From assembly GCA_030154105.1 (NCBI GenBank), contig JASKKP010000001.1, positions 81,967 to 145,966 on the forward strand: 64,000 nt of DNA. Direction: 5' to 3'. Positions within the stretch are counted from its first letter, which is position 1. Each line of letters opens with the position of its first letter. This DNA is from Bacillota bacterium (GTDB taxonomy: Bacteria; Bacillota; DTU030; DUMP01). The position numbers were made by a program, and so were the translations under genes. Positions 11,694 through 32,734 of the stretch are shown here, in pieces. The notes under the pieces are model-generated. The model ran no database searches, had not been told where the DNA came from, and saw only the letters and a list, made by a program, of their open reading frames with translations.

Positions 11694-11767
11694 AGTTAAA
11701 GGACTGCAGGGAAAAGTGGACCTTAAAGAAAAGGCTGCTGAGCACACAAAGGGCTAGGAGGATTTTC

Positions 11768-13102
11768 GTGGGCAGGCTTTTTGGCACCGACGGTGTGCGC
11801 GGAGTGGCGAACGCCGACCTTACTCCGGAACTAGCCTTTGCCCTGGGCCGGGCAGGGGCTTATGTGCTGACGGACGGGCGTGAGCGGTCGCGCTTGGTGG
11901 TGGGCCGGGATACCCGCCGGTCCGGCGAGATGTTGGAGGCGGCGCTCACGGCCGGCATTCTCTCGGTGGGCGGCGAGGTTTTGAGCGTGGGCGTGCTACC
12001 TACGCCGGCCATCGCCTACCTCACGCGGGCGCTGGGAGCCGACGCGGGGGTAGTGATCTCTGCCTCGCACAACCCGGTGGAGGACAACGGGATCAAATTT
12101 TTCTCGGCAGAAGGCTATAAGCTTCCCGATGCCACCGAGGACCGGATTGAGGCCCTCCTGGGCGAAGCGAACCTTCCGCGGCCCACCGGCGCCGGGGTGG
12201 GGATAAGGCGGAGCGTGGCAGATGCGGGTGAAATGTATCTTAAACACCTGCGCGAGACACTCGGCGCGGATCTTTCCGGCCTCAAGATTGTAGTGGACGT
12301 GGCCCACGGCGCGGCGTACCAAGTGGCGCCCGAGCTGCTGCGTTGCCTCGGGGCAGAGCTTACCGTCTTGAACGACGCTCCTACGGGTGTTAATATTAAC
12401 GTAAATTGCGGCTCCACACACCCGGAAGGACTGCAAAAAGCGGTGCGGGAACTTAAGGCGGATGTGGGACTCGCCTTCGACGGCGATGCCGACCGCCTTA
12501 TCGCCGTGGACGAGCGAGGGGAAGTAGTGGACGGCGACCAGATCATGGCCGTCCTGGCGCTGGCGCAGAAGGAGAAGGGTCGGCTCAAGGGGGAGGGGCT
12601 GGTGGCCACCTCTATGAGCAACATGGGGCTGGAGCTGGTCCTTAAAAAACACGGCCTCCTTCTCGTGCGCACGCAGGTGGGCGACCGGTACGTGCTGGAA
12701 GAGCTCTTAAACCGCGGTTGGAACTTGGGCGGCGAGCAGTCCGGCCACATCATCAACCTGAACTACAACACCACGGGCGACGGCCTGAGCACGGCGCTCC
12801 AACTCCTCGCCGTGCTGGTAGAAAAGAAAGTGCCGCTTTCCGACCTGGCGGCGATCATGCCGCGCCTGCCGCAGCTCATGGTGAACGTTCCCGTGCGCCA
12901 GAAAGAAGGCTGGAAGGAGAATACGAAAATAGCGGCGGCCGTTGCCGGAGCGGAAAAGGCGCTAAAAGGACGCGGCCGCGTGGTGGTCCGGCCGTCGGGC
13001 ACGGAGCCCCTGATGCGCGTCATGGTCGAAGGGGAAGATGCGGGATTGCTGCGCCAGATCGCTGAGGAAATCGCGGCCGTAATCGCGGCCGAGCTGGGTT
13101 AA
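11768..13102 (+). CDS. glmM: Phosphoglucosamine mutase
   Basis: FGTDGVRG, ISASHNP, DGDADR, GGEQSGH, RPSGTEP. Confidence 0.97.
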   Translation: MGRLFGTDGVRGVANADLTPELAFALGRAGAYVLTDGRERSRLVVGRDTRRSGEMLEAALTAGILSVGGEVLSVGVLPTPAIAYLTRALGADAGVVISASHNPVEDNGIKFFSAEGYKLPDATEDRIEALLGEANLPRPTGAGVGIRRSVADAGEMYLKHLRETLGADLSGLKIVVDVAHGAAYQVAPELLRCLGAELTVLNDAPTGVNINVNCGSTHPEGLQKAVRELKADVGLAFDGDADRLIAVDERGEVVDGDQIMAVLALAQKEKGRLKGEGLVATSMSNMGLELVLKKHGLLLVRTQVGDRYVLEELLNRGWNLGGEQSGHIINLNYNTTGDGLSTALQLLAVLVEKKVPLSDLAAIMPRLPQLMVNVPVRQKEGWKENTKIAAAVAGAEKALKGRGRVVVRPSGTEPLMRVMVEGEDAGLLRQIAEEIAAVIAAELG

Positions 13103-13289
13103 GAGGTGCGCTTGTGCCCCCCGGTTAAGTTAAGCGGGAGCAAAAGGAGGCCCGAGCGCCCGCCCTGACGGCACTGCCGGTGATATGGATGCTCCACGTG
13201 AAGGAGGTGATGCTGCGCGGCGAAAAACGGGCATGAAAATGGAAAAGGAGGGGTGCGACAAGGACGAAAAACCTGTAGCGGAAAACAGT

Positions 13290-13457
13290 CAAAGCGCCAG
13301 GACTCCCCGGCGACGTTCGGCCGAAAGGAAATCGGCCCTCGGGGAGTTGACGAGGAAGGGGTTTATCGAAGTTTTCGGCGGATGCCCCTCGGGCCTTCAC
13401 CGCCCGTAAGGCTTTCCTAAAATCCCGGGAGCGATCCCGGGGACAAAGGGAAAGCCA
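13290..13457 (+). ncRNA. glmS ribozyme (GlcN6P-activated riboswitch)
   Basis: AGCGCCAGGACT...AGTTGACGAGGAAGGGGTTTATCGAAGTTTTCGGCGGATGCCCC matches the conserved core; lies upstream of glmS. Confidence 0.95.
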
Positions 13458-13568
13458 GGTGAAGAAGGGTATACTGTGCCCCACAGGGGGTATGTTTCTC
13501 ATCCTTCCGGTTTTGCGTCGGCCCGGAAGGCAAGGTTAAGTTTTGCCTTTAACAAGGAGGTTAACCCT

Positions 13569-15392
13569 ATGTGCGGCATCGTCGGCTATATCGGTTACCG
13601 TAAAGCCGTGCCCATATTGATTGAAGGCTTGAAGAAACTTGAGTACCGGGGGTATGATTCCGCCGGGGTAGCCGCCGTAGTAGACGGCGGGATCTGGCTG
13701 GAGAAAGCCGTGGGGCGCCTGAGCGTGGTGGCCGAGCGCGTGCGGGAAAAAGACCTTCCCGCCCGGGTGGGCATCGGGCACACCCGCTGGGCCACGCACG
13801 GACGCCCTTCCGACGTGAACGCCCATCCCCATACCGACTGCACCGGCCGCTTTGCCGTTGCCCATAACGGGATCATCGAAAACTACGCCGAACTCAAGGC
13901 CGAGCTGGAAGAGAAGGGGCACACCTTTAAATCCCAAACCGACACCGAGGTTTTGGCCCATCTTCTCGAGGAGCTGTATAGGGGCGACCTGGTGCAGGCG
14001 GTGCGGCAGATGGCAGCCCGCCTGGAGGGGTCTTACGCCCTGGCCATCCTTTCGGCCGACGAGCCGGATAAAGTGGTGGCCGTGCGCAAAGACAGCCCGC
14101 TCATTGTGGGCCTGGGCCGGGGCGAGAACTTCCTCGCGTCCGACATTCCGGCCATTCTCGAACACACCCGCGAGGTATACATCCTGCAAAACGGCGACAT
14201 GGCCGTTCTTACCGCCGAAGGCGTGGAGCTAACGGACACCAAGGGCCTTCCCGTTCAGCGGGAAATTTTCCACGTGAAATGGGACCCGGTCCAGGCGGAA
14301 AAAGGCGGCTACGACCACTTCATGCTTAAAGAAATCTTCGAGCAACCCCGGGCCCTGCGCGATACCATGGCCGGCCGGCTGAAGAACGGCCATGTAGAGC
14401 TCAGTGAGGTCAATATCGACGACGAGGCCATACGCGCCCTGCCTAAGATTTTCATTGTGGCCTGCGGCACCGCCTACCACGCCGGATTGGTGGGTAAGTA
14501 CGTCTTGGAGAAGCTGGCCCGCATCCCGGTGGAGGTGGACATCGCCTCCGAATTCCGCTACCGCGAACCGCTCCTTCGCCCCGAGGACTTGGTGATCATC
14601 ATCAGCCAGTCCGGCGAGACGGCCGATACCTTGGCCGCCCTGCGCGAGGCGAAGAAGGTAGGGAGCCGGATCCTGGCCATCACCAACGTGGTGGGAAGCT
14701 CGGTGGCCCGCGAGGCGGACGACGTCATCTACACTTGGGCCGGCCCCGAGATCGCCGTGGCTTCGACCAAGGCTTATACCACGCAGGTGCTCTCGCTCGT
14801 CATGCTGGCCGTGCGCTTCGGTTTGGCGCGCGGTACGCTCGGCGCGGAGGAAGCGGAAAGAATTACTGCGGCTCTCCGGCTCCTTCCAGACCAAGTCCAA
14901 AAGATCCTGGAGCAGGCGCCCACCGTTAAGGCGCTGGCCGAGAAAGTGGCGCGGAGCGAACACGCCTTCTTCATCGGCCGGAGCATCGATTACGGCGTGG
15001 CCATGGAAGGAGCGCTCAAGCTCAAGGAGATCTCCTATCTCCACGCCGAAGCCTACGCGGCCGGCGAGCTCAAACACGGCACGCTGGCCCTCATCACCCG
15101 GGGTGTGCCGGTGATCGCCTTAGCCACGCAGCCGGACATCTACGAAAAGATGCTGAGCAACATCCAGGAAGTCAAGGCGCGCGAAGGCCACGTCATCGCC
15201 GTCGCCCACGAGGGCGACCGCGGAATTGCCCGCCTGGCCGACGAGGTCTTTTACATCCCGCGCACGGTCAAGGCCGCTTCCGCCATTCTCACGGTCGTCC
15301 CGCTCCAACTCCTGGCCTACTATGCCGCCGTCGCCCGCGGCTGCGACGTCGACAAACCGAGAAACCTGGCCAAGAGCGTGACGGTGGAGTAG
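13569..15392 (+). CDS. glmS: Glutamine-fructose-6-phosphate aminotransferase
   Basis: MCGIVG start, HTRWATHG, SQSGETADT, C-terminal DKPRNLAKSVTVE; AAGGAGG RBS. Confidence 0.98.
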   Translation: MCGIVGYIGYRKAVPILIEGLKKLEYRGYDSAGVAAVVDGGIWLEKAVGRLSVVAERVREKDLPARVGIGHTRWATHGRPSDVNAHPHTDCTGRFAVAHNGIIENYAELKAELEEKGHTFKSQTDTEVLAHLLEELYRGDLVQAVRQMAARLEGSYALAILSADEPDKVVAVRKDSPLIVGLGRGENFLASDIPAILEHTREVYILQNGDMAVLTAEGVELTDTKGLPVQREIFHVKWDPVQAEKGGYDHFMLKEIFEQPRALRDTMAGRLKNGHVELSEVNIDDEAIRALPKIFIVACGTAYHAGLVGKYVLEKLARIPVEVDIASEFRYREPLLRPEDLVIIISQSGETADTLAALREAKKVGSRILAITNVVGSSVAREADDVIYTWAGPEIAVASTKAYTTQVLSLVMLAVRFGLARGTLGAEEAERITAALRLLPDQVQKILEQAPTVKALAEKVARSEHAFFIGRSIDYGVAMEGALKLKEISYLHAEAYAAGELKHGTLALITRGVPVIALATQPDIYEKMLSNIQEVKAREGHVIAVAHEGDRGIARLADEVFYIPRTVKAASAILTVVPLQLLAYYAAVARGCDVDKPRNLAKSVTVE

Positions 15393-15836
15393 AGGCACAT
15401 TACCTACCTACTGACTCGTGCTGGCCGCTACAACTGATACGTGGTAATCTGGGCGGAAACGGGACCAGCCGATTAGTGAGAAAGCCCCGGGGGACCGCTG
15501 CGAGAAGCAGTGCACCCCGGGGTACCTCTTTATTCCTGAATAATGGCCCAACCATTTATGTTCTCGAGCGAAGTACCAAGTCGTTTCTCCCTCCGGCAGG
15601 ATTTCTCTACCGGTCAGCGAAAGAATCGAGTGAATATGGTTCTCGAGAAAGCTTATACCTAACGGGAAGGGGTCTAACGTGGCTTCTCAACATCTTCGAC
15701 AATCGGATTAAGCTTTTCCATTTTCGGCACCAAGGTTTCTTAAGGGACCCTAGCTGGATGTGAGTAGTGGCCGGGAGGAAAGGTTTATCCGACTGTCAAG
15801 CTCGCTCTTACGGATCTGAAAAGGCTAGTTGAAGGA

Positions 15837-16874
15837 GTGAACGAAGTGGACAACGCTATGCCGGAAATAGAAGATTACAGGAGGCTTTATCAGGCGGCAG
15901 AAGACTTTAAGCAGCTTGCGTGCTGGCAGTGGATGAGCGATATCGATATTTTCGGGGTACAAGATCCGGTTAGTGGGGAAATCGGTTACTGCAGCGTACT
16001 GGGTGCGGATGGCAGGCTTTTCGGTCTGGCCGTGTACCCTGGTGATGAAGGGTTTGCCTCCCTGCAAAGCGTCCTGGAACAAGGAGAACCAGAACCAAAC
16101 GATCCAGATTTCGGGCTGACCCAAAGATCTCTGCTTGTTACTTTTGGGAACAGGGAGGAACTAACAAAAAGGGATCTTGACATAATTAAAATGCTAGGAC
16201 TAAAGTTTCGTGGTCGGAACCAATGGCCACTCTTTAGGAGTTTTCTACCCGGCTACCATCCCTGGTATCTCGATCAAGCTGAAGTACGGTTTCTTACTAT
16301 TTGCTTGCAACAGGCCCAGGAGGTAGCATTTGCCTGCCGAGAAAACCCAAATTATCTCCTGCTGAATGAATCTGAGTATCTAGTCCGGGTTCCAGAATCA
16401 CGAGAAGCCGGATTGAACTGGAGCAACAAGCATATTTGCCCGCGCCCAGCTCCGGTGGAAAAACCGCGGCTTGCAGTGGACCGAAAACTAGTGCAAGCCA
16501 TTAAGGCGTCTTGCAAAGCAAGTGACCAAGTCTGGGAAGTAGATGCCTCGTTTGCACCGGTCCCCATACAAGAGGACAGAAACTCACGACCCTACTATCC
16601 GCGGCTTTTTCTTTGCGGCGATACTAAGAACGGTCTTATTATAGGCTATGATATGTTTAAACCCCAAGACTTGCCGAGAGAAATCCAAGAAAGATTTCTC
16701 CAGGTTGTAGCAGAAACGAAGACAATTCCGCAGCTTATAGCAACCCAAAATGCTGTCACCAGGGCGGCTCTGAGGCCGTTGGCGCAGAAGTTAGGCTTCG
16801 CTTTGGCAAAGGTCCGCGGTTTAGCCATTATAGGCGCCATTCGTGAGGAGATGCTACGCCGTTTCGGCGTCTAG
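15837..16874 (+). CDS. Uncharacterised 345-aa protein (resembles DUF7309/DUF6930-type proteins from memory; unverified)
   Basis: Long ORF with GAAGGAG RBS; W-x-W...F-GVQDP-SGEIGYCSVLG...GLAVY-G motif; decayed paralog at 24.85-25.1 kb. Confidence 0.7.
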   Translation: MNEVDNAMPEIEDYRRLYQAAEDFKQLACWQWMSDIDIFGVQDPVSGEIGYCSVLGADGRLFGLAVYPGDEGFASLQSVLEQGEPEPNDPDFGLTQRSLLVTFGNREELTKRDLDIIKMLGLKFRGRNQWPLFRSFLPGYHPWYLDQAEVRFLTICLQQAQEVAFACRENPNYLLLNESEYLVRVPESREAGLNWSNKHICPRPAPVEKPRLAVDRKLVQAIKASCKASDQVWEVDASFAPVPIQEDRNSRPYYPRLFLCGDTKNGLIIGYDMFKPQDLPREIQERFLQVVAETKTIPQLIATQNAVTRAALRPLAQKLGFALAKVRGLAIIGAIREEMLRRFGV

Positions 16875-16889
16875 GGTGAACATCTGTTC

Positions 16890-17070
16890 ACCGCGCAGAA
16901 AGTCGGCCCGGCCGCCTTAGAGCAGGCGAAAACCTGAGCTGGCTCTTCGCGCGGCCGCCAGAGCCTCCTCGTACTCTTTTGGCGTTGTACGCCGCCCCGA
17001 TCTCAGCGTAGCGGTAGGCGAGGTCTGTCTTAATACGGGCATGGCCCACACAGGTCATTAGGACGAAGAG
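16890..17070 (-). pseudogene. Possible relic of the C-terminus of a PflX-like radical SAM gene
   Basis: Minus strand, across a frameshift, reads LFVLM...LAYRYAEIG / TPKEYEEALAAARRA, resembling the YPEI-R--T--EY-EA---AR C-terminal pattern. Confidence 0.35.
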
Positions 17071-17205
17071 CTATTTAAGTAAGGAAGGGATCTGGCGGTA
17101 TTTGACGAATATTCAAAAGGGAAATTTTCCTGAATACCGAATTGGTACGAAAGATGGTCTTTCCCCAAAGCCTAATACCATCAATAGAGGGAGGAATTAT
17201 ACCAC

Positions 17206-19095
17206 TTGGCACAATTGCTGCACTCTATATTCCCGATTATGAGAGCCATTAATGACCCGTCACTGGGAAACATTCTCCCCATTTTTTGGATTGCGGTTGC
17301 AGCTATAGGATCTAGTGCCATTCTAATGCTTTATCTTGTTGACATAAACAAATGTCTTACTACCTTGAACGCTGCGTACCAGGCGGTTAAAGAGTATGGA
17401 CAGGCAGGTAGTGCCGCTCAATATTCCACCCTTTTTCGCCGTCTTGAGCAAGTGTTGGGGCAGCCATGGTCTGAATTTCAAAGAAATCTAGTTCATTGGA
17501 AGACACCAGAGGGCGAAACGATTACGACGCCGCTAGATGTGTCCAATTTCCTGAATGAAGATACTCTTTTCAGTGCCCGGATGAACCGAGCCTTTTACGC
17601 GGCCGTACCAGGTTTGTTAACTGGGTGGGGAATACTCGGAACATTTGTTGGGCTTACTTTAGGCCTCCAAGGTCTCTCGCTTGAAGGGCACAATGTGGAA
17701 GCGCTCAGAGCAGGTGTTCAGGGGTTACTATCCGGAATGGATGTTGCTTTTACTAGTTCACTGTGGGGAATCTTGTTTTCCATAATTCTTTCCGTCATAG
17801 AGAAAGTGCAGGACCATAGAGTTCAGCGTATAATCAAAGAACTGCAAAAAGCTCTGGGCAATGTGGTGCCATATAGGTCGACGGAAACATGGTTGGCGGA
17901 TGTTCTATGGGAGGCCCAACAACAGACGACAGAGTTGAAGAATTTTAACGAGCAATTAGCGATAGACATTGCGGCCGCGTTAGAAGAAAGACTCGCTGAA
18001 CGGTTAACACCTGCGCTAGAAAAGCTGCTCGAGGCTATTGACGACTTGACTCAGACCGGTTCAGCTGAAGTTGGGAGAGCAATCAGCAACCAAGCAGGCG
18101 AGGCCTTAAGTGGATTGGCTAAAGTGATGGAGAAAGTTAGTGCGACAATGGCTGAGGTAACCGATAAATCAAAACTATCACAGGAAAGCCTCTATCAAGC
18201 AATGCAACAGAACATCGAGGACCTAAGAGACGGCGTGGGAGCTACGTTGGAGATGCTAAGGCGGCAGCAGGTATCTGTCGGTGATAAAGTTGAAGAGTTG
18301 CTAATCCGTATGGCTGCGCGTATAGAAGACAGTATGGATAAACATCAGACCCTGATTCAAAACATAACATCTGCTACGGGCGAAGAGTTGACGAACCAGA
18401 TTAAGAAAGTCACCGAAGAGGTTAATGATTTAGTGGGGATCCTAAGTGAGCGGTCAATTTCTGTTTCTCATGAAGTTGGAAAACAACTTACGACTGTCTC
18501 CAATATGGTCAAAGGTGTTGCAGTTGACATAACGAACCGGTACGAGGCGGAGCACCAACGTATCAGCGAGCTATTAGCAGGGTTGGAGTCTGCTAGCCAT
18601 CAGGTTAGTATAGTCATCGCTGGCGCAAAAGAGGCGGCTGCAGCATTTCAAGAGAGTGCCAATTCGGTGTTATCGGTCACTAACGAATTAAGACAAGCTT
18701 CCGCGGAGATATTTACTACCTATTCTGGCCACGCCAGCTTGGTGAACAGAGTCCAAGCGCAACTGGAAGAATACTGTAAAACAACGGAAAGCATTCTGAA
18801 CCAGATAACCGAAGCACTCGAAGTTACTCGTAGGTCTTGGGCAGCATACGAGAGTAGATTTGAAGGGCTCAGAAAAGATTTAGAAACCGTATTTGATGAG
18901 CTGGCCAAGGGCCTGCAAGAGTATAGTTCAAAGACGAACGAAGGAGTCGAGGAGTTTTTAAGAAGTTTGGACAAGTATATCTCTGAAATTGTGAACCTGC
19001 TCACTGGTGCAATAGAAGAACTAAAGGATGTGACGAGCGAGTTACCAGAGGCTGCTGAAGAGCTAAAGGCTGCGCTTATGTCGAGACCAGCTTGA
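17206..19095 (+). CDS. zorA: Zorya ZorA (MotA/ExbB-like membrane protein with long helical tail)
   Basis: PGLLTGWGILGTFVGL-GL and AFTSSLWGI TM motifs followed by ~420-aa coiled-coil tail; first gene of the operon. Confidence 0.9.
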   Translation: MAQLLHSIFPIMRAINDPSLGNILPIFWIAVAAIGSSAILMLYLVDINKCLTTLNAAYQAVKEYGQAGSAAQYSTLFRRLEQVLGQPWSEFQRNLVHWKTPEGETITTPLDVSNFLNEDTLFSARMNRAFYAAVPGLLTGWGILGTFVGLTLGLQGLSLEGHNVEALRAGVQGLLSGMDVAFTSSLWGILFSIILSVIEKVQDHRVQRIIKELQKALGNVVPYRSTETWLADVLWEAQQQTTELKNFNEQLAIDIAAALEERLAERLTPALEKLLEAIDDLTQTGSAEVGRAISNQAGEALSGLAKVMEKVSATMAEVTDKSKLSQESLYQAMQQNIEDLRDGVGATLEMLRRQQVSVGDKVEELLIRMAARIEDSMDKHQTLIQNITSATGEELTNQIKKVTEEVNDLVGILSERSISVSHEVGKQLTTVSNMVKGVAVDITNRYEAEHQRISELLAGLESASHQVSIVIAGAKEAAAAFQESANSVLSVTNELRQASAEIFTTYSGHASLVNRVQAQLEEYCKTTESILNQITEALEVTRRSWAAYESRFEGLRKDLETVFDELAKGLQEYSSKTNEGVEEFLRSLDKYISEIVNLLTGAIEELKDVTSELPEAAEELKAALMSRPA

Positions 19096-19096
19096 T

Positions 19097-19813
19097 GTGC
19101 TGGAGGTGTTAGAGGTGCGTTTAGGCCGGAAAAGATACATTGAGAATTCCTCTGGAGAAACAGATTACTCCTTATCAATTAGCGATTTGATGTCCGCCTT
19201 ACTGGCGATCTTTGTACTGGCATTAACATATTACATTTTGAGCTACAGCCAGGCCAGGGCCCAACTCGTCGAAAACCAAGATAAACGATCCGAGATATTA
19301 CAAATGTTGCAAGCTGAGCTTAAAGCCCAGGGCATTAACGTTGAAGTGGACTACAAACACGGCATATTGCGCTTGCCAGAGGGGATTTTGTTTGCAAAAG
19401 GTGACGCCGAACTCAATGAATCAGGAAAGCAGGTAATCGCAATTCTGGCGCCGGCATTGTTAAGAGTGCTAGAACAGCCTACGTATGCTACAAGCGTGGA
19501 AACTATTTTTATAGAAGGACACACTGACAGTGACCCTATTAGAGGAGGAAAGTATAAATCCAATTGGGAGCTGTCAACACAACGGGCAATCAATACCTGG
19601 CGCCAAATGAGAGAAACTGAACCTAAACTGGAAACTCTAGTAAACGCTTTAGACGAACCTGTGTTTTCGGTAAGCGGTTACGCCGATCGCCGACCAGTAG
19701 CGCTTGGCGACAGTGAAGAAGCTAAGGCGAAGAACCGGAGGATTGATTTAAGGTTTTCCATGACTCCTCCTCGCTCTGAAAACGGTCCTGAGCGTCAGGG
19801 AGGGGAACCATGA
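19097..19813 (+). CDS. zorB: Zorya ZorB (MotB/OmpA-like)
   Basis: SISDLMSALL TM with conserved Asp; OmpA-like IEGHTD, NWELSTQRA, NRRIDL. Confidence 0.92.
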   Translation: MLEVLEVRLGRKRYIENSSGETDYSLSISDLMSALLAIFVLALTYYILSYSQARAQLVENQDKRSEILQMLQAELKAQGINVEVDYKHGILRLPEGILFAKGDAELNESGKQVIAILAPALLRVLEQPTYATSVETIFIEGHTDSDPIRGGKYKSNWELSTQRAINTWRQMRETEPKLETLVNALDEPVFSVSGYADRRPVALGDSEEAKAKNRRIDLRFSMTPPRSENGPERQGGEP

Positions 19814-21216
19814 GGCATTCGTTCCTCGAAGCGTTTAAACGCCGCCTGACTGTTGCGTTGTCCCAACAACTTCATGTTTCGCAACCCATACACACACTGA
19901 AGGCCAAGGACATGGTGAGCAAAAAGTTCAATGCTGCGCCCAAAATGCCTAGTTCTTTGGACCTTGAACACCTTATGTTGAAGATTAAGAAGCTGTGGCG
20001 GGAATACGGGGAAGAGGGACTAAAGAAACTTACCTATGTAGAAATCGGCCGTCTGCCGTGGGTTTTGTTTTACGGTGAACCACCTAAGATAGCCGATGAC
20101 CCTGAACTTACGAGAGCCATACTGCGTTTGGCGAAAAAACGAGGAAGAAGAGACTTGGCCAACCTAATCCATGTCTATTTTCTTTTCTATGACCCTTTGG
20201 TTCCCGGAACTGAACTTCTCAGGGAGTACATAACCACGTCGCTGGCACAATACAACGGAAAAGCACCTCGGATAACCAGTTGGCAAAAAAGAGCTTTTCC
20301 ATTATTTACTTCAGACGGTCCGCTGAATACTGCTAAGTGGTTGATAACCCAGGAAAGTAGTCACGCTAGTCTTCTTTCCACGGAGTTAGGGTTGGACGGT
20401 GAGTTGGGTCATGGTTCTTTCGCCAAGCATCTAGTGCGCCACGTTATTGAACTGGCGGGAAGTTATTTTCCTGCCGGCTTAGATACCGCTATTGACTTAC
20501 TCCAAAATGGTCCTGCCTTCCAGGACTTGATACCATACGCGGCAAATAAATTCATTACTAAGGCTGGGCTAGAGTGTGTTGATAGTGTAAGAACTAAGCT
20601 GAAGACCTTCTTTCTTAAGACCCTTGGTGACCCCAGGGTAATTGGCAACAGGTATAGGTGGGGACCAGTCAGCCCAGAAGCGAAGCGAATCTTTACTCAG
20701 TGGATTTCCAAAGAGGACCTGGAATTTTTCTTTAATTTAGTAGACCGTTCTTCTGGCAACCGGAAATGGATTTACCGGCGGACTTTTTGGGAAACTTACT
20801 TACCCTATATGGAAAACACCTGGGTGGCGCTAGGACAGCGGGCGAGAGATTTAATAAACCAAGCAGAGATGAAAGAGCATCTAGAAAACCGCAAATTCGG
20901 CAGCTTGGAAGGAGCGGGGACTACTTCGCAAAGTGTTTTTTTCGTGCAAATGAGAGGGTACCTATTTGTGGAATGGAGTCATGATGGTGGCTGCCGGGTT
21001 TTCAAGCAAACCGACGGCAACGAACAAATTGTATTGGGGAAACAGACTTACCATGCTTCCCAGCTCCGAAGAAACGATTACGTTCTTTACGTCCGGCACA
21101 ATGCCAGCGAAAATTATTCATGGCAGAACAGGCTTGCCCAATGGATTATGCTCCACTTGGGCATTAAGCCGGTAAAATCATACCGAGTAGATGACCGAAA
21201 ACGTTACTTGGCTTGA
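19810..21216 (+). CDS. zorC: Zorya ZorC (EH-signature domain protein)
   Basis: F...R--FW--Y and VEWSHDGGCRVF EH-signature-like motifs; overlaps the zorB stop. Confidence 0.82.
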   Translation: MRHSFLEAFKRRLTVALSQQLHVSQPIHTLKAKDMVSKKFNAAPKMPSSLDLEHLMLKIKKLWREYGEEGLKKLTYVEIGRLPWVLFYGEPPKIADDPELTRAILRLAKKRGRRDLANLIHVYFLFYDPLVPGTELLREYITTSLAQYNGKAPRITSWQKRAFPLFTSDGPLNTAKWLITQESSHASLLSTELGLDGELGHGSFAKHLVRHVIELAGSYFPAGLDTAIDLLQNGPAFQDLIPYAANKFITKAGLECVDSVRTKLKTFFLKTLGDPRVIGNRYRWGPVSPEAKRIFTQWISKEDLEFFFNLVDRSSGNRKWIYRRTFWETYLPYMENTWVALGQRARDLINQAEMKEHLENRKFGSLEGAGTTSQSVFFVQMRGYLFVEWSHDGGCRVFKQTDGNEQIVLGKQTYHASQLRRNDYVLYVRHNASENYSWQNRLAQWIMLHLGIKPVKSYRVDDRKRYLA

Positions 21217-21287
21217 CAAAAAGATCATACACGCAGGCAGCTTTCTTATTGAGAAAGTCTCAGGGAGCCTTATTGAGGTGAATTGCT

Positions 21288-24200
21288 ATGGAACTTAGTA
21301 ATAGGGTGTGGCGAGTCAACGACGATGGTTTTGTTTGTCCGTTTGATGCTCAGAGTGCTCCTACTAATGTTCGGCAACAGATTCTTACCCAATTGTTAGA
21401 AGAAGAGCGGGCAGTTGCCGGCAACAGTGAGATACTGATCCCACATAAAGTAGTCGCGGAATTACCAGAGGAAGAACGTTCACTTCTAGAACTACCTGAT
21501 TCCTACCCCTTTACTGTTGAAATCAGGGCGTCCGGGAACCTGACTGCAAAAGACCTCAAATACGTTTATTATTTTCGTGACGGTTCCGGTCGGCCATTCT
21601 TCTTTGCCAAACGCATAGGATCGTGCTTAAGGATTGATGAGGAGCAAATTTACCTGTTAACAGGCCAGTTGTACTGGCTAATTGAAGCGATAGATTCTTT
21701 TAATGCCCGCAATCCTGAAGCATTAGGACGTTCGGAGGCAATTAAAGAAAATCTCTTGGAGTTTGCGAAAATTAAAGGTTTAGCAGAGGCCACTGGAGCC
21801 GTTCTCGATTTATTTTTGAATAAGGAACAGGTTTTGGTTCCGAGTGGGCTGACTGTGCGTCTGCATCGATGCGAAGATGGAGCCATAGAAATTGAGCCAG
21901 TTCTTACCCGTATAACCGAAGATGATGGAACGCGAGCTACTGAGCTTCTCAACGACGAGCAGCAGGCGGAATTTCTTAAAAGGTTCGATAAGTTTAATGT
22001 GGTTCGCGACCTGTATGATATTCCAAATGGGCCAAAGATTGTTCTCGACGATAAGATAAAAGAGGCTCTTAAGGAGTTCAAACGGTTCCGCCGGGTTTCT
22101 GGCCAGGCAAAAGAGGCTATACTTTATTCGCCTCAGATCGTGTTTGATCCTGAAACGGTAAACTTAGACGACTTCAGCGATAGGGTTATTGAAATAGGTG
22201 AACACCCGTGTCGAAGTTTCCCTTTCCCGCAGGCTTTGCGAGAAGCTTGGCTTCCGGCTGAAGAAGGAGAGGATGTGGAAAATCCTGAGCTATCTGGCAA
22301 GGATAGTGGGCCTGAACTTACGCAAGATGAAAGCACGCCTTATGCAGAAGGGGCAGGCAACATTATTTACGGTGAAGGGACAGAGGACAGGAGTGGTACG
22401 GAGCAAGTATGTGCTGAGACAAGGCCCCATTATGTTGCCGACAAATCTTGTGTAGCGGGACAATACAGTCTGGTAATTAAAGACAATTTTTATGATGTAG
22501 AGTTCGAGACTGCTCTAGAACAGCGCAGCAGTAAGATGAGACTTCCTCGAAGCCTAAGGCCGGAAGTTCAACTGCTGCCCCATCAGAAAGAGGGCCTCCA
22601 GTGGCTGCAACGCATGTACCTGGAAGGGCGAAGAGGGGCGCTGTTGGCGGACGACATGGGATTAGGGAAGACTCTTCAGGCCCTCGCGTTCCTGGCCTGG
22701 GTTCAAGAATGCAATGAAGCTGAAGGCAAACCGAATAAACCCATGCTTATTGTTGCCCCAGTTGCTTTATTGGAGAACTGGAAACGAGAATATGAGCGTT
22801 TTTTGGACCCCGTATTTGGGCCGCTTGTCGACTTATATGGTTCTGGATTAAACGGATTTAAGGCGACTCATATGCCAATCGTACCCGATGACGAATTGAG
22901 GGAAATCATTAAAGGCGCTGTTGAAAAAGGTAAATGGCTTGAAGCTAGCAAGTTACAAAGATGCGGAGCTGTGCTGACTACTTATGAAACACTACGGGAT
23001 TATCAGGTGGCACTAGGTAGGGTTAACTGGGCCGTTATGGTCCTTGACGAATGCCAAAAAATAAAGAATCCGACCGCACTTGTAACAGGAGCAGCTAAGG
23101 GCATGAAATATGACTTTGGGTTATGTCTAACTGGAACTCCCGTTGAGAACAGTCTGGTAGACCTTTGGAGCATTATGGATTTTGCTTGTCCGGGGCACTT
23201 GGGCTCCTTGAAGAATTTTGTTTCCAAATACCACACTCCTTTAGCCAAACCTGAGACTAACAGGGAAAAACTCGGTATGGAACTGCGACAGCATGTGGGT
23301 TCATTGATGCTGCGTCGCCTAAAAGACAACTACCTGCACGGATTACCCGAGAAACAGGTGCACCTTTGTCCTGCAGAAATGCCTCCGGAACAGCTTAATA
23401 GATATAAGGATATAATCAGAAGAGCACGACAGACCTTACCCGATCGTTACTATGGAAACCGGAAAGAACACATCTTTAAGATTATCCAAGAACTAAGGAA
23501 AGTGTCTTTGCATCCATACCTGGATTATGACGAAAGGGCGCTCGAACAAATACCTGATGAAGCTATCATTCGAGCTTCAGCGAGGCTGGCGAAGGCTGTA
23601 GAGATTCTAGATCAGGTTAGAGATAAGAAAGAAAAAGCCATAGTCTACCTAATTGACCGCAAGCTGCAGCGAGTCCTACAACGGTTGTTGTATAACAGAT
23701 ATGCTATACGAGCGGCGATAATCAACGGGACAGTATCAGCTTGCCGAAGACAATTTATGGTAGATGACTTTCAGAACAAGGAAGGTTTTAATGTAATTAT
23801 AATGTCTCCTGAGGCAGCAGGAGTCGGCCTCAACATCACAGCTGCCAATCATGTCATCCATTTAAGCAGGGAATGGAACCCTGCAAAAGAAGATCAAGCG
23901 ACCGATCGGGTGTACCGCATTGGACAAGAACGAACCGTTCACGTTTATATTCCTCTAGCAGTGCATGCTAGCTTTGGTACTGGAGCAGGAGAGGGTACAT
24001 TCGATCAAAAACTGCATAGGTTACTTGAATCCAAGAGGCAACTGAGTCGCGCAGTTCTCATGCCGGCATTTATAGAAGAAAGCGAGATGCAGCAGCTTGG
24101 AGAAGAGTTGTTAACCTTGGACCTGACAGAGGAAGAGACCGAAGCTAGCGTTCTGTCAATAGAGGACATCGACAGAATGCAACCCGAAGCTTTTGAAAAG

Positions 24201-24566
24201 GTTGTTGCCGCCCTGTACAGAAAAATGAGTTACGAGATTTTCCTTACTCCCTCGAGAGGAGACATGGGGGCCGATGTTATTGCGCTAAGCGAATCTAAAC
24301 CATCATGCCTGATTCAATGTAAACACCACCTTGACCCCTCCAAAGCTCAGGGCATGTCGGCTGTTCAAGAAGTCAGTTCAGCCGCTGGGATATACGAGCG
24401 GCAATATGACAAGCATTTTAAAACGGTGGTCATTACAAATGCAGTGCGTTTTACAGATTCGGCCGTGGAGTTGGCCAGGAGCAACGGGGTCGATTTGATT
24501 GCTAGAAAAGGACTAGCAAAGATGTTGGAGGAGACCCAAATCTCCTGGGCGGATCTCGAAATCTAG
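21288..24566 (+). CDS. zorD: Zorya ZorD (SNF2 helicase with C-terminal Mrr-like nuclease)
   Basis: LADDMGLGKT, LDECQKIKN, TGTPVEN, QATDRVYRIGQ; C-terminal FE--V--LY...GD-GAD...IQCK Mrr-type motif. Confidence 0.9.
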   Translation: MELSNRVWRVNDDGFVCPFDAQSAPTNVRQQILTQLLEEERAVAGNSEILIPHKVVAELPEEERSLLELPDSYPFTVEIRASGNLTAKDLKYVYYFRDGSGRPFFFAKRIGSCLRIDEEQIYLLTGQLYWLIEAIDSFNARNPEALGRSEAIKENLLEFAKIKGLAEATGAVLDLFLNKEQVLVPSGLTVRLHRCEDGAIEIEPVLTRITEDDGTRATELLNDEQQAEFLKRFDKFNVVRDLYDIPNGPKIVLDDKIKEALKEFKRFRRVSGQAKEAILYSPQIVFDPETVNLDDFSDRVIEIGEHPCRSFPFPQALREAWLPAEEGEDVENPELSGKDSGPELTQDESTPYAEGAGNIIYGEGTEDRSGTEQVCAETRPHYVADKSCVAGQYSLVIKDNFYDVEFETALEQRSSKMRLPRSLRPEVQLLPHQKEGLQWLQRMYLEGRRGALLADDMGLGKTLQALAFLAWVQECNEAEGKPNKPMLIVAPVALLENWKREYERFLDPVFGPLVDLYGSGLNGFKATHMPIVPDDELREIIKGAVEKGKWLEASKLQRCGAVLTTYETLRDYQVALGRVNWAVMVLDECQKIKNPTALVTGAAKGMKYDFGLCLTGTPVENSLVDLWSIMDFACPGHLGSLKNFVSKYHTPLAKPETNREKLGMELRQHVGSLMLRRLKDNYLHGLPEKQVHLCPAEMPPEQLNRYKDIIRRARQTLPDRYYGNRKEHIFKIIQELRKVSLHPYLDYDERALEQIPDEAIIRASARLAKAVEILDQVRDKKEKAIVYLIDRKLQRVLQRLLYNRYAIRAAIINGTVSACRRQFMVDDFQNKEGFNVIIMSPEAAGVGLNITAANHVIHLSREWNPAKEDQATDRVYRIGQERTVHVYIPLAVHASFGTGAGEGTFDQKLHRLLESKRQLSRAVLMPAFIEESEMQQLGEELLTLDLTEEETEASVLSIEDIDRMQPEAFEKVVAALYRKMSYEIFLTPSRGDMGADVIALSESKPSCLIQCKHHLDPSKAQGMSAVQEVSSAAGIYERQYDKHFKTVVITNAVRFTDSAVELARSNGVDLIARKGLAKMLEETQISWADLEI

Positions 24567-24574
24567 CAAAAGTT

Positions 24575-24825
24575 GGGAGTATCTAAGCCGGGTGGCAGCG
24601 TTTATGCGTTTTCCCAGTTTAAGGTTGCCAGACATCAGGACCGGCTATTTTGTCTCTATGAACCGCCTGTGGCCAGTCCATTAACCCGTGCCTTCTCCAC
24701 CTGCTTGAGCAGGGGGTCAAGGGTTTGATCTGAGGGAAGCGGGCAGCCTTGCCCCGGCGTTTGCGCTGGTTGTCCTGCCTCTACTTAAGCTCTCGCTGGA
24801 GCACAGCACGCGGAAACTCCTCACA
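24575..24825 (-). pseudogene. Decayed IS21-family istB (helper AAA+ ATPase) fragment
   Basis: Across stops and frameshifts reads EEFPRAVLQRELK*RQDNQRKRRGKAARFPQIKPL / KARVNGLATG / RFIETK*PVLMSGNLKLGK, matching the IstB N-terminus to a degenerate Walker A. Confidence 0.7.
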
Positions 24826-24846
24826 GCCCCAACGCTGCTGGGTGTG

Positions 24847-25108
24847 CGGAAATGGATGGACGATGTGGATATTTTTCGGAGTGCAAGATCTGGTTAGTGG
24901 AGAAATCGGCTATGGCAGCATAATGGGGGCTAGCGGCAACCTTTTTGGTCTGGCTGTGTACATCGGCGACGACAGAACCCAAAATGCTGCCACGCGCACG
25001 GCCCTACAACCGTTGACCCAAAAGTTGGGCGTTACTTTGCTAAAGGTCTGCGCTTTACCCATCATAGGTGCCCTGCGCGAGGAAATGCCACGCTGTTTCG
25101 GCGTTTGA
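24847..25108 (+). pseudogene. Truncated, internally deleted paralog of the 15837-16874 gene
   Basis: FGVQDLVSGEIGYGSIMGASGNLFGLAVY joined directly to TQNAATRTALQPLTQKLG...REEMPRCFGV; ~690 bp missing, +1 frameshift, 5' end replaced by istB relic. Confidence 0.85.
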
Positions 25109-25211
25109 ATTTAGATAAACTATCTATCCCCCATGCAGCCAGTCGGCCGAGCGACCTCAAAAGCGGGCAAGAACCAAAACTCCGGGCCTAATCAAAAAGG
25201 TTCCTTCTGCC

Positions 25212-25841
25212 TCAGTGGGGAGAATCGGTCAATTCAGTCACCTTAATTTTCTCAGGGATGCCAGCCGCTGCCTTTATGACTTCCATTTCTACGTTCCCGA
25301 TTCGGTATACGTTGCCGGAGTTTACCTTCTCGTCGGCTGCCAACTTAAGCACGAGATCTCCGAGTGTCGGGGCCATGTCTTCGGGGATGTGCAGCCCGGT
25401 AATCCTGTTGGCATCTTTAACGGGAGTCATCCCGCTCAGAACAACCCCTTCTACGTGGTCTATCTTAGTGACGTACAGAAACTTCCTGATCGCAAAAAGA
25501 CCGGCTAAAGCCACTACTCCGATGGCTATCTCATAAGTATTAGTGGTGTAGATTAGCATCTTTCTGGCTATCGCGTAGAGCATCACTTCGATGACCATGC
25601 CGGGTGTGTGCTTAATCAGCATCATGGCGAGCTCTAACCCGATGACCAAGAGAAGAACATGAGTTAAAAATCCTTGAAGTAACTCATAGGCTTGAGTCGG
25701 GTCAGTTACCAGCATTGAGTAAAGGCGTTGAACAAGGTTAAAACCACTAATAATCACCGTTAAGATGATGAATACGGCCAGAGCAGTCTCAACCCAGTAT
25801 ACGGTCTTTGCGATGTGGTTTACCGCTTTTCTCACTGTCAT
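25212..25841 (-). CDS. PsiE-like membrane protein with C-terminal transporter-associated (CorC/HlyC-like) domain
   Basis: Four TMs with LLLVIGLEL..ML and EVMLYAIARK; soluble C-terminal domain. Confidence 0.6.
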   Translation of the reverse strand: MTVRKAVNHIAKTVYWVETALAVFIILTVIISGFNLVQRLYSMLVTDPTQAYELLQGFLTHVLLLVIGLELAMMLIKHTPGMVIEVMLYAIARKMLIYTTNTYEIAIGVVALAGLFAIRKFLYVTKIDHVEGVVLSGMTPVKDANRITGLHIPEDMAPTLGDLVLKLAADEKVNSGNVYRIGNVEMEVIKAAAGIPEKIKVTELTDSPH

Positions 25842-25931
25842 CTCTCTCCTTTAATCCCAGAATCCCAGGTGCCGGGCTAGCAGGTTTTTCGAAAGATGTG
25901 GCGAAGTCTTTTAATAAAGGAGGTGGGGACG

Positions 25932-26354
25932 GTGGCCGAAATTGAAGTGGAAGTACAAGGGGTGGCGGTTGATCAGGGTGGCCATCACATGGTCATGCTG
26001 GGCGATAAGGAAAAAAAGAAGCTGCTGCCGATTGTGATTGGCCCAGTTGAAGCAAGGGCAATCTGGATGAACCTCCAGGGGATCACCGCTGAGCGCCCGC
26101 TTACCCACAACCTCCTCAAGAACCTCCTGGACCTCGTTGGCGCTAAAGTGCAAAAGGTCGTTATAACAGACATCAAAGAAGGTACGTTCTACGCTCTACT
26201 GTACCTGGAGCACGGCGGCGAGATTCATAAGGTAGATGCCCGCCCGAGCGATGCCATCGCGCTCGCCCTTGCTTTTAAGGCGCCTATCTACATCGACCTG
26301 CGGCTTATTGAATTTACCTTGGACCCGGCAGACCTAAACATCCAGCATAACTAA
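25932..26354 (+). CDS. Bifunctional nuclease family protein (DUF151)
   Basis: LPIVIG--EA, RPLTH-L, DARPSDAIALA; AAGGAGGTG RBS. Confidence 0.9.
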   Translation: MAEIEVEVQGVAVDQGGHHMVMLGDKEKKKLLPIVIGPVEARAIWMNLQGITAERPLTHNLLKNLLDLVGAKVQKVVITDIKEGTFYALLYLEHGGEIHKVDARPSDAIALALAFKAPIYIDLRLIEFTLDPADLNIQHN

Positions 26355-27411: not shown

Positions 27412-28302
27412 GTGAGCGGGCGCGAGTTCTACATCGTGGATGTGTTTGCCGAGGAGAAGTACGCCGGTAATCAGCTCGCGGTTTTCACCCAGGGGCACCT
27501 CTATTCCGACGAGGAGATGCAAAAGCTGGCCAAAGAAATGAATTACTCCGAGACCACCTTTATCTTTCCGCAGGAGAGCAGAGGAAACACCTTTAAAGTA
27601 AGGATTTTTACCCCTGCCAGAGAGGTGCCTTTCGCCGGCCACCCGACGCTCGGTACGGCCTATGTAATCCTGAAGGAATTTATGCGTACGCCCGTGCCGG
27701 AAGTCATTCTGGACCTTAAGGTAGGCAAAATTCCGGTCGCCGCCAGCTACACGCCGGCCGGAGAGGTGGACACTCTCCTTATGAAGCAGGTGGAGCCTTC
27801 GTTTGGGGCTACGGTGGACGCGATGAGTGCCGCGGAAATTCTGTCGCTACCCCTAGAGGCGATCGATACGCGCCATCCCGTGCAAGAGGTTTCTACCGGA
27901 TTACCCTTTCTTATCGTTCCACTCAAGACATTAGAGCACGTGCGGGCGGCCAAGGTAGACATGGACTGCTTTGCTAGGCTATGGGATCGCCTTGAGGCGC
28001 GCGCCATCCTGGTATTCTCGCCGGAAACGTATAAGCCCGAAAGCCAGCTCAACGTCCGCGTTTTTGTCCATTACTACGGTATTCCCGAGGATCCGGCCAC
28101 CGGAAGCGGCAACGGCTGTCTCGCGGGGTACCTCTTAAAGCACAACTACTTTAGAGCCCCAAACATCGACCTTAAAGTGGAGCAGGGGTACGAGATAGGC
28201 CGCCCGTCCGCTTTGCGGCTAAAAGGGGACCTGGAAGGCGGCCGGATCAACGTCTACGTAGGCGGGCGGGTTATCCCCGTGGCCAAGGGCAATCTGCTTT
28301 AG
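27412..28302 (+). CDS. PhzF-family isomerase/epimerase
   Basis: DVF...GNQLAV, SETTF, EVPFAGHPTLG, EDPATGS. Confidence 0.9.
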   Translation: MSGREFYIVDVFAEEKYAGNQLAVFTQGHLYSDEEMQKLAKEMNYSETTFIFPQESRGNTFKVRIFTPAREVPFAGHPTLGTAYVILKEFMRTPVPEVILDLKVGKIPVAASYTPAGEVDTLLMKQVEPSFGATVDAMSAAEILSLPLEAIDTRHPVQEVSTGLPFLIVPLKTLEHVRAAKVDMDCFARLWDRLEARAILVFSPETYKPESQLNVRVFVHYYGIPEDPATGSGNGCLAGYLLKHNYFRAPNIDLKVEQGYEIGRPSALRLKGDLEGGRINVYVGGRVIPVAKGNLL

Positions 28303-28355
28303 CCGAGGTTCGATAAAAAACCCCCGGCCTTTTCCGGCCAGGGGCTAAGAGCAAG

Positions 28356-28934
28356 TTATAGATTGCCTTTCAGCCCAATCTCTGCGGCAACGGTCTGCAT
28401 GCCCTTGATGGTTTCTTCGATGATGTAGTCCAAATCCAGGCCGAGCATTTGTGCACCCTTTTCGATAACTTCGCGGTTTACTCCGGCCGCGAAGCTTTTT
28501 TGTTTCCACTTCTTCTTGACGGACTTGGTCTCCAGGTCCAAAATGCTCCGGCTCGGGCGCATAAGGGCGGTGGCCGTGATAAGGCCGGTCAGCTCATCGA
28601 CCGTGTAAAGAACTTTTTCCATACGCTCGGTTGGCTCTACGTCCACACATAAGCCCCAACCATGGCTCTGGACGGCATGTATATAGTCTTCCGGCCAGTC
28701 ATGCTGCCTGAGGATCTCCGCGACTTTTTTGCAGTGTTCGTCCGGGTACATTTCGTAGTCGAGGTCATGCACCAGCCCGACGATATCCCATTTTTCTTTA
28801 TCCGGTTCATTAAATACCTCGGCAAAATGGCGCATCACGGCCTCCACCGCCAGAGCATGCCGGATAAGGCTTTCGTTTTTGTTGTACTCGGTGAGCAATC
28901 TGTAGGCCTCTTCTCGCGTAGGAACATGAGCCAT
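28356..28934 (-). CDS. HD-domain (HDIG-type) hydrolase
   Basis: LIRHALAVE, GLVHDLDYE, VDELTG. Confidence 0.85.
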   Translation of the reverse strand: MAHVPTREEAYRLLTEYNKNESLIRHALAVEAVMRHFAEVFNEPDKEKWDIVGLVHDLDYEMYPDEHCKKVAEILRQHDWPEDYIHAVQSHGWGLCVDVEPTERMEKVLYTVDELTGLITATALMRPSRSILDLETKSVKKKWKQKSFAAGVNREVIEKGAQMLGLDLDYIIEETIKGMQTVAAEIGLKGNL

Positions 28935-29088
28935 ACCAAGACCTTCCTTCTCAGCAAAGTTTGGCTTGTCTTAAATACTAGCCTTTCTAGGGTGGGCTGT
29001 CAAGCTCGGTGGCGCAGGACGATACCTGGGGCTTAGGGCATGATGCCTATCAACATATGATCATTTATAGGTCAATTTTACCAAAAAT

Positions 29089-29117
29089 GGAGGAATTTAT
29101 GCTTAGGTGCAGAATAG
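29089..29117 (+). promoter_or_regulatory. Sigma-H-type promoter
   Basis: AGGA(29091)-17 nt-GAAT(29112), GGAGGAATTT...GCAGAATA. Confidence 0.6.
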
Positions 29118-29287
29118 CTTTTTAGTATAGTGCAGGCCGGGGTCTGTACGGCAAAAAAATTTTAGCCGTTCGCCTTACCCCGACCGTAAATGACGGGGTA
29201 GGCGTATTACAATAAAAGGCAACAGGCAGTTTCTAACGCACTTTCTCCAGAACTGCCGTACTACGGCCGAGATGGGGGACCGTCGCA

Positions 29288-30112
29288 GTGGTAGATCAGG
29301 GAAGGAAGTCTACTCTTTTGCCGCTTACGCTGACCATCTGGTGCCTTAACGGTTTTCGAGTACAGCGCGGACCGGAGTTCATTCTCCCTGAGAGCTGGAA
29401 CCGAAAGAAAACTGCTCTCCTTTTCAAGTTTCTCTTGGTTCACCGCCAACCGGTGCCGGTCCATGTACTCCTCAATGAGTTTTGGTCGCACCTTCCCGAA
29501 AAGTCGGCCCGGCACAACCTGGCCGTTACCGTTTATAACCTGCGCCGGGTGCTGGAACCGGAGCTGGAGCGCGGGCAAAGGTCCAACTACATACTGGGTG
29601 GAAGCGACTACCTTTACCTCAATTGGGATCTGGTGGCCTTTTACGATGTCGATGAGTTCCTAAAGCGCTACAACCAAGGCATGGACCTGCTCGCCCAGGG
29701 TTTATTGCGCCCGGCTGCCCGTGCTCTTACCGATGCACTCGAGTTCTACAAGACCGACTTTTTGCTGGACGCTGCTTCCGAGCCGTGGATCATTGCCGAG
29801 CGGGAGCGCCTGCAGGTGGCGCGCCTGGATCTCTTAGAGCACCTGAGCGAGATTCTGATCAAGCTCGGCCAGTACAAAAAGGCCTTTGAGCATGCCAGAC
29901 ACTTGGTTCAACTGGACCCTTGTAACGAGGAGGGACACAGGATGGTCATAGAGGCCCTGGCGAGACTGGGCCACCGGTCTCAGGCTATAGCTCAGTACCA
30001 GCGCTGCCGGGAAGTGTTGAAGCGCGAGCGGGGCATAGAACCAGGACCGCTAACTGAAGAATTGTATCGCCGCATCGCCAGCGGGGAGAGCTGCCAAGGC
30101 TCTCCCCGCTGA
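29288..30112 (+). CDS. Stand-alone SARP-type regulator (wHTH + BTAD domain)
   Basis: L-F-LLVH...NL-V-VYNLRRVLEP wHTH, then DVDEF...W---ERERL...LDPCNEE TPR-like BTAD. Confidence 0.85.
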   Translation: MVDQGRKSTLLPLTLTIWCLNGFRVQRGPEFILPESWNRKKTALLFKFLLVHRQPVPVHVLLNEFWSHLPEKSARHNLAVTVYNLRRVLEPELERGQRSNYILGGSDYLYLNWDLVAFYDVDEFLKRYNQGMDLLAQGLLRPAARALTDALEFYKTDFLLDAASEPWIIAERERLQVARLDLLEHLSEILIKLGQYKKAFEHARHLVQLDPCNEEGHRMVIEALARLGHRSQAIAQYQRCREVLKRERGIEPGPLTEELYRRIASGESCQGSPR

Positions 30113-32729: not shown

Positions 32730-32734
32730 TGCTC

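Follow-up and report, generated by a model that had tools for sequence, protein, structure and literature searches.

A complete and intact type I Zorya operon on an acquired block in the chromosome of a single-membrane, Gelria-like Firmicute

A stretch of 64,000 nucleotides from a Bacillota metagenome-assembled genome (MAG), covering positions 81,967 to 145,966 of contig JASKKP010000001.1 (assembly GCA_030154105.1; the whole stretch is hereafter called the window), carries at positions 17206–24566 a four-gene operon that, judged on its sequence, is a genuine, complete and intact type I Zorya system, and apparently a functional one. In the reading favoured here, to which we assign a probability of about 85%, this intact zorABCD operon lies on an acquired block of 10.5 kb between glmS and a bifunctional nuclease (BFN) gene, in the chromosome of a monoderm (single-membrane) Gelria-like Firmicute. 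Gene identities, gene order and motifs were determined together with the type of the host, the boundaries of the island and the rarity of such systems. The system is a member of the known Zorya kind, and its odd sequence traits are common to many relatives.

The operon consists of four open reading frames (ORFs), all on the plus strand, of 629, 238, 468 and 1092 amino acids, contiguous and in the canonical order zorA-zorB-zorC-zorD. The end of zorA (19095) is followed by the start of zorB at 19097, zorB and zorC overlap by 4 nucleotides, and the largest gap, between zorC and zorD, is 71 nucleotides; both the order and the spacing are those expected of an operon. The four reading frames, 7.4 kb in all, were open, and every catalytic or motor residue checked was kept. 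The best PADLOC matches were the type I sub-models ZorA1 (PDLC00601, E-value 5.9e-54, residues 21–620), ZorB1 (PDLC00608, 4.5e-73), ZorC1 (PDLC00622, 3.2e-69) and ZorD1 (PDLC00631, E = 0, 1085.6 bits, profile positions 3–1070 of 1071), each matched near full length and with no architectural difference from the window proteins. The ZorA2, ZorA3, ZorB2 and ZorB3 models scored far below those of type I, and the PADLOC search gave neither type II nor type III Zorya (ZorE HNH, or ZorF and ZorG in place of ZorC and ZorD), ZorC and ZorD both being present. Pfam identified MotA_ExbB in ZorA (above the cut-off), OmpA in ZorB (2.4e-10), EH_Signature in ZorC (8.4e-48), and SNF2-rel_dom, Helicase_C and Mrr_cat in ZorD. 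The first-pass annotation of this DNA had seen four linked genes with ZorA, ZorB, EH-signature and SNF2-plus-Mrr motifs at 17206–24566 and had proposed a complete type I system; ORFs, PADLOC, Pfam and the PDB bore out the genes and their positions, and the proposal of type I was upheld, as all four top PADLOC matches were type I models.

The zorA gene (17206–19095, plus strand) begins with TTG, and its 629-residue product matched PADLOC ZorA1, NCBIfam antiphage_ZorA_2 and the PDB entries 8VVN_C and 8QYD_A. It was the only one of the four proteins to pass its NCBIfam model (147 bits, cut-off 100). Three transmembrane segments (residues 19–49, 132–155 and 177–200) form a MotA/ExbB-like membrane core, in which T146 and S185 align with the ion filter T147/S184 of Escherichia coli ZorA, and the C-terminal helical tail comprises 404 residues with 0.7% proline. 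The alignment to the solved Shewanella ZorA (8VVN) covered residues 81–433 (2.4e-25), and E. coli ZorA (8QYD) was matched as well.

ZorB (19097–19813, plus strand, 238 residues) matched PADLOC ZorB1, Pfam OmpA and Shewanella ZorB (8VVN_B, 2.2e-33, residues 20–229). It has a single MotB-like transmembrane segment with Asp30 (SISDLM), followed by an OmpA-like peptidoglycan-binding domain with the motifs GHTD (141–144), SNWELSTQRA (155–164) and NRRID (213–217). The peptidoglycan-binding residues of E. coli ZorB are N152, L155 and R159 (PMC11946911); the window protein has N156, L159 and R163 at these positions and a serine for E. coli Y151. E. coli ZorB also carries two disulfides per monomer, mutation of which abolishes defence (PMC11946911). 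Such a disulfide-stabilised domain is absent here, the window ZorB having no cysteine at all.

ZorC (19810–21216, plus strand, 468 residues) is an EH-signature protein by PADLOC ZorC1, Pfam EH_Signature and PDB 8R68. Its E388 aligns with E. coli E400, and for H430 an equivalence with E. coli H443 is likely on the basis of spacing rather than alignment, as it lies 42 residues past E388 where E. coli has 43. The 1092-residue ZorD (21288–24566, plus strand) matched ZorD1, the Pfam domains given above and PDB 8QY7 (4.2e-106), the last match including the ZorD-type N-terminal domain (residues 31–282). The SNF2 ATPase motifs were found as GLGKT (458–462, Walker A), DECQ (587–590, DExQ box) and QATDRVYRIGQ (870–880, motif VI). 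The alignment to E. coli ZorD stops at window residue 924, and beyond it the window protein has a PD-(D/E)xK nuclease domain of the Mrr_cat family which E. coli ZorD lacks (24168–24527, plus strand, ZorD residues 961–1080; PF04471, 9.4e-18, 64.9 bits), with the D...QxK pattern in GADVIA (994–999) and IQCKH (1009–1013). The assignment is owed to the Pfam match, a PDB search with the Mrr piece having returned chance matches to AcrIIC4 only. Published work already knows of ZorD proteins with an Mrr-like nuclease, which ZorD often carries, and, as the ZorD1 profile was covered from 3 to 1070 of 1071 positions, Mrr-bearing ZorD is already modelled in PADLOC.

The system thus shares with the E. coli type I system the zorABCD order, the three transmembrane segments, ion-filter Thr/Ser and long helical tail of ZorA, the transmembrane Asp and the OmpA-like domain with its N..L...R residues in ZorB, the EH Glu/His of ZorC, and the N-terminal domain and Walker A/B-bearing SNF2 ATPase of ZorD. 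It differs in low identity to the E. coli-centred NCBIfam models (ZorB 51 bits, ZorC 45 bits), in a ZorA tail about 100 residues shorter (ZorA of 629 against 729 residues), in having R93 for E. coli E89, in a ZorB without cysteines where E. coli has two essential disulfides, and in the added Mrr_cat domain; its host is a monoderm anaerobic Firmicute, that of the E. coli system a diderm enterobacterium. The best match among solved structures, in the transmembrane core and in the peptidoglycan-binding domain alike, was the type I ZorAB of Shewanella sp. ANA-3 (8VVN; PMC11890865), which differs in keeping both acids of the Ca2+ site (WMEFDETL), in a longer ZorB (282 against 238 residues) and in its diderm host.

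The operon was acquired horizontally together with the block around it (15392–25878, ca. 10.5 kb). Guanine-plus-cytosine (GC) content falls from about 62% in the host to about 47% from ca. 15.6 to 26.4 kb. Nucleotide homology to Gelria sp. Kuro-4 ends at 15391, in the stop codon of glmS, and restarts at 25879 just upstream of the BFN gene; glmS and the BFN gene are about 354 nucleotides apart in Gelria sp. Kuro-4, which represents the empty site and lacks the block. The flanks are 86% (glmS), 81% (BFN) and 77% (phzF) identical to that genome. At the junction next to glmS, searches revealed neither an integrase or tRNA nor an att-like direct repeat or Tn7-like genes. The donor was most likely another Firmicute and not a proteobacterium, since each of the four proteins has its closest relatives in Bacillota MAGs.

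The host is a spore-lineage Gelria-like Firmicute with a single membrane, congeneric with Gelria sp. Kuro-4 (Bacillota; Clostridia; Thermoanaerobacterales), whose GlmS is 90% identical to that of the window. Upstream of the operon the window has cdaA-cdaR-glmM, a glmS ribozyme and glmS in series; a tetrahydrofolate (THF) riboswitch is found further along the window. Spo0A (Spo0A_C) is encoded in the genome, which comprises 2.1 Mb in 48 contigs and is 92.75% complete. These markers, together with the GlmS identity, bear out the Firmicute host named in the first-pass annotation. Omp85 was not found in the genome of the window, in the complete genome of Gelria sp. Kuro-4 or in any sampled member of the family and class; the presence of Spo0A and the absence of Omp85 make the host a monoderm.

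Relatives of the system were few. The nearest ZorA among 5.8 billion proteins was 41% identical, the lineage being sparse in public data; word-indexed searches that started from ZorA itself, from its core region or from an alignment of 50 ZorA sequences returned six to eight proteins each, and a contig scan with ZorD gave four loci. The closest complete system was found in the Bacillota MAG AS04akNAM_41 from an anaerobic digester (DUMF01000007.1; locus L012), which is the nearest to the window in all four proteins (ZorA 37%, ZorB 67%, ZorC 42% and ZorD 49% identity) and has the same gene order. It too is an intact zorABCD in an Omp85-negative genome, with Arg at the position of E. coli E89 and no extracytoplasmic cysteine in ZorB, in which the one Cys lies within the N-terminal 60 residues. 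It differs from the window in its ZorD of 969 residues without Mrr, in having lost the first acid of the Ca2+ site as well (WRSFER) and in its genomic context. Phylogenetic analysis of the ZorA core placed the window, L012 and the protein P0006 in a clade with 99% support in the SH-like approximate likelihood ratio test (SH-aLRT), the deeper branching being unresolved. The nearest named ZorA proteins are from Bacillota, Clostridia and Ca. Fermentithermobacillaceae MAGs (NCBI labels), and ZorA of Bacillota MAGs is already public, several being annotated as 'anti-phage ZorAB system ZorA'. A 726-residue ZorA with both acids kept (P0046, MHA1465734.1) was recorded under the label of a Candidatus Heimdallarchaeaceae archaeon MAG, which means either that an Asgard archaeon has Zorya or that the bin is contaminated.

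In the membrane-proximal cytoplasmic domain of E. coli ZorA, Ca2+ is bound by E86 and E89 of one subunit together with the main-chain carbonyl groups of D217 and Y220 in the adjacent subunit, and the E86A/E89A mutant has lost defence (PMC11946911). The equivalent segment of the window, WSEFQRNL (17467–17490, plus strand, ZorA residues 88–95), aligns with E. coli WNEFEESL, so that E90 corresponds to E86 and R93 replaces E89; the two-glutamate site is therefore absent. G218 and V221 occupy the places of the carbonyl donors. The first-pass annotation had noticed a single acidic residue where E. coli ZorA has two Ca2+-binding glutamates, an observation which the alignment and the published ligands (PMC11946911) corroborate. 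It had further suggested that activation may differ at this locus and that a Firmicute version would have to sense phage across another kind of envelope. The substitution as such is not peculiar to the locus. Among the 153 nearest ZorA representatives at 50% identity that were ungapped at the column, the E89 position was occupied by E in 67, K in 38, R in 18 and D in 5; K or R was thus present in 56 of 153, in 37 of which the acid at the E86 column was retained. Glutamate at both positions was found in just 61 of 153, and the Ca2+ glutamate pair is for this reason not family-defining.

Sampled by lineage, both acids were kept in 17 of 21 ZorA proteins of Pseudomonadota, one proteobacterial ZorA having K, and in none of six in the phylum of the window. 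The residue pairs at the E86/E89 columns were E/R, S/R and E/K in the Omp85-negative hosts (the window, L012 and genome G396), and G/K, N/F and Q/D in the Omp85-positive Firmicutes G306, G043 and G198. The diderm Elusimicrobiales locus L015 has K in the MAFFT alignment only, the segment being unaligned under the hmmalign profile. The basic residue at the E89 position is accordingly, on these alignments, a lineage polymorphism that goes with lineage and not with envelope type, and since K and R occur also in diderm hosts, they give no evidence for an envelope-specific mode of activation. The choice between Glu and Lys/Arg was seen to covary strongly with the column of window T108, which is Asn in the acid class and Ser, Ala or Thr in the basic class, and with several positions near the third transmembrane segment and the beginning of the tail, a pattern that may be no more than the mark of two deep subfamilies.

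A comparable pattern was obtained for ZorB. Cysteine pairs were present in 17 of 19 sampled Pseudomonadota and in none of six systems of the window's phylum, and the spacing from the transmembrane Asp to GHTD was 111 residues in the monoderm clade against 119–181 in Pseudomonadota. As diderm Firmicutes likewise lack the cysteine pairs, anaerobic life explains their absence as well as the type of envelope does.

Zorya is reported to be under-represented, though not absent, in single-membrane bacteria, where it is perhaps not triggerable (PMC11946911). Of 401 genomes sampled evenly from the window's phylum and classed by envelope according to Omp85 (98 of 401 positive), six had EH_Signature proteins. 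Four carriers are Omp85-positive, that is, diderm Firmicutes: G043, G198 and G306 showed ZorA-ZorB-ZorC-ZorD-like rows on inspection, and the contig of G314 was too short for it. With the window's own genome excluded, ZorC was present in 4 of 98 Omp85-positive and in 1 of 302 Omp85-negative genomes (Fisher p = 0.014). In a comparable sample of 401 genomes from the phylum to which a Rhodospirillales carrier belongs, there were 37 carriers. The one Omp85-negative carrier other than the window, G396 (locus L008, contig C28, ca. 9406–15600 of the locus), has an intact ZorB and ZorC, a ZorA that stops at 446 residues and misses about 220 residues of the tail, and a ZorD in three fragments in different frames. 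The window is hence a rare intact Zorya in a monoderm host, in agreement with the published view (PMC11946911). A further locus, L013 (CAVKDU010000014.1, under the Lachnospiraceae name Wujia chipingensis), encodes a signal peptide of the lipoprotein type (…AAASC), and its genome had three Omp85 matches; since mislabelling or contamination of the bin is probable, its Zorya is not countable as a monoderm one.

By analogy with the systems of E. coli and Shewanella, ZorA and ZorB would assemble into a proton-driven 5:2 motor in the cytoplasmic membrane, with Asp30 of ZorB as the putative proton carrier and the OmpA-like domain tying the stator to peptidoglycan when phage entry disturbs the envelope. 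Rotation of ZorA with its tail of about 400 residues may then recruit or activate the EH-signature DNA binder ZorC and the SNF2 ATPase-nuclease ZorD, which would break down incoming phage DNA near the membrane, the window ZorD with the added Mrr-type nuclease domain. Stoichiometry, trigger and anti-phage activity are the parts of this scheme that we infer from the two model systems.

Several points weigh against an intact and working system. The genome is a MAG, 93% complete. ZorB, ZorC and ZorD score far under the equivalog cut-offs of NCBIfam, a shortfall which, the models being E. coli-centred, can be read as a gauge of the divergence of the system from E. coli. The sole other Omp85-negative carrier, G396, holds a decayed system, so Zorya is not always maintained in monoderms. 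Finally, the window lacks both features that are essential in E. coli, the E86/E89 pair and the ZorB disulfides, and a non-functional state is therefore possible from the sequence alone. The operon might accordingly be a recent passenger, still intact in sequence but giving no defence in its monoderm host, by reason of the thick wall or of the missing Ca2+ site and disulfides, and heading to decay. We consider this unlikely. The GC contrast of 47% against 62% does indicate recent arrival, a pseudogene remnant lies directly downstream of the operon, and the depletion of Zorya in Omp85-negative genomes, the truncated ZorA and fragmented ZorD of G396 and the loss of defence in the E. coli E86A/E89A and disulfide mutants all point the same way; but the four ORFs are open with all checked residues kept, the related L012 is also intact in an Omp85-negative genome, and K/R at the E89 position and cysteine-free ZorB recur in so many intact homologues that they must be regarded as tolerated states and not as lesions. 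An artefact, in which the block would be an assembly or binning chimera foreign to the Firmicute chromosome, is very improbable: the origin of the genome as a MAG in 48 contigs, 92.75% complete, and the deviating GC content of the block speak for one, but both junctions lie within one contig of 229 kb, synteny with Gelria sp. Kuro-4 extends to either side of the block, and Bacillota also supply the nearest relatives of the Zorya proteins.

The same two missing features could alternatively be adaptations to the single membrane, R93 and the short cysteine-free ZorB reflecting an activation unlike that of diderm Zorya. The window, L012 and G396 all combine R or K with a ZorB that has no cysteine pair and the shortest Asp-to-GHTD spacing, at the same time as the sampled Pseudomonadota mostly keep both acids and the cysteine pair. 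This explanation is nevertheless improbable, because the diderm G306, G043 and G198 also have neither the two-acid pair nor cysteine pairs, K occurs in the Elusimicrobiales locus (in the MAFFT alignment only) and in one proteobacterial ZorA, the three monoderm systems form one clade and count as one evolutionary event, and missing disulfides fit anaerobic hosts equally well. A monoderm-adaptation reading of the Ca2+-site and cysteine data was in fact dropped once Omp85 had placed four of the six 'Firmicute' systems in diderms. Under the favoured reading of an intact, horizontally acquired type I operon, R93 and the compact cysteine-free ZorB would be lineage traits of a Firmicute-rich Zorya branch, and the bridging charge of Ca2+ is probably replaced by that of the basic residue, which lies a single turn of the helix away from the kept Glu.

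Besides the operon, the block holds a gene with DUF7309 and DUF6930 domains as its first gene (15837–16874, plus strand, 345 residues; Pfam 9.8e-62 and 9.4e-26, without PADLOC or NCBIfam match). A decayed, internally deleted copy of it follows the operon (24749–25108, plus strand), detected by BLASTP as two pieces of 70–76% identity which match residues 39–71 and 303–345 of the intact copy; the two copies share a direct repeat of 129 nucleotides at 77% identity. A role of the DUF7309 gene as a Zorya accessory was considered and rejected, as it was absent beside Zorya at all other loci examined. The last gene of the block encodes a small membrane protein (25212–25841, minus strand) with a PsiE-like N-terminus and a CorC_HlyC C-terminus in Pfam and no PADLOC match. 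PADLOC gave no further defence genes among the ten neighbours of the operon, and scans for promoters and terminators were at or under shuffle level.

The core flanks are glmS on the left (13566–15392, plus strand; Pfam GATase and two SIS domains) and the BFN-domain gene on the right (25896–26354, plus strand; Pfam 3.9e-36). The glmS ribozyme, a Gram-positive-type glmS leader (13282–13466, plus strand; RF00234, 124.7 bits, E-value 6.8e-29), and the THF riboswitch (43761–43854, upstream of an ORF at ca. 43835) both scored above the Rfam gathering score. The longest glmS ORF starts with GTG at 13476, its extra 90 nucleotides lying inside or abutting the ribozyme, and the conserved MCGIVGY start is at 13566. 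Lowered GC was also observed at 28000–36000 and 50000–54000 (ca. 51–58% against 62%). The former stretch opens with genes for an HD-domain protein and a BTAD/TPR regulator; of eight proteins compared with PADLOC from 26.4 to 35.3 kb, none had a convincing match, the only hit being a weak one to CARF_TM (33380–33916, 7.4e-06).

That the family is divided into Glu and Lys/Arg at the Ca2+ position suggests that not every Zorya needs the site reported as essential in E. coli, and ZorB without disulfides outside the sampled Pseudomonadota suggests the same of the E. coli disulfides. A tentative and rather doubtful extension is that the Firmicute-rich branch works in single-membrane cells without the Ca2+ site, having R93 and E90 on the same helix face instead, and without disulfides. 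If true, the ZorA family would comprise metal-bridged and salt-bridged classes, with R93 replacing the Ca2+ that ties neighbouring ZorA subunits to the tail, and the compact ZorB would serve as an anchor that needs no disulfides and suits the anaerobic monoderm wall; the operon would then be a test case for Zorya triggering in cells that have neither an outer membrane nor a thin wall in a periplasm. Structural studies have led to the proposal that ZorB senses a phage-induced change in the distance from membrane to peptidoglycan (PMC11946911). This idea of an envelope trigger has a concrete system here, where zorABCD is intact in a genus that is clearly monoderm and the cultured Gelria sp. Kuro-4 offers the empty site.

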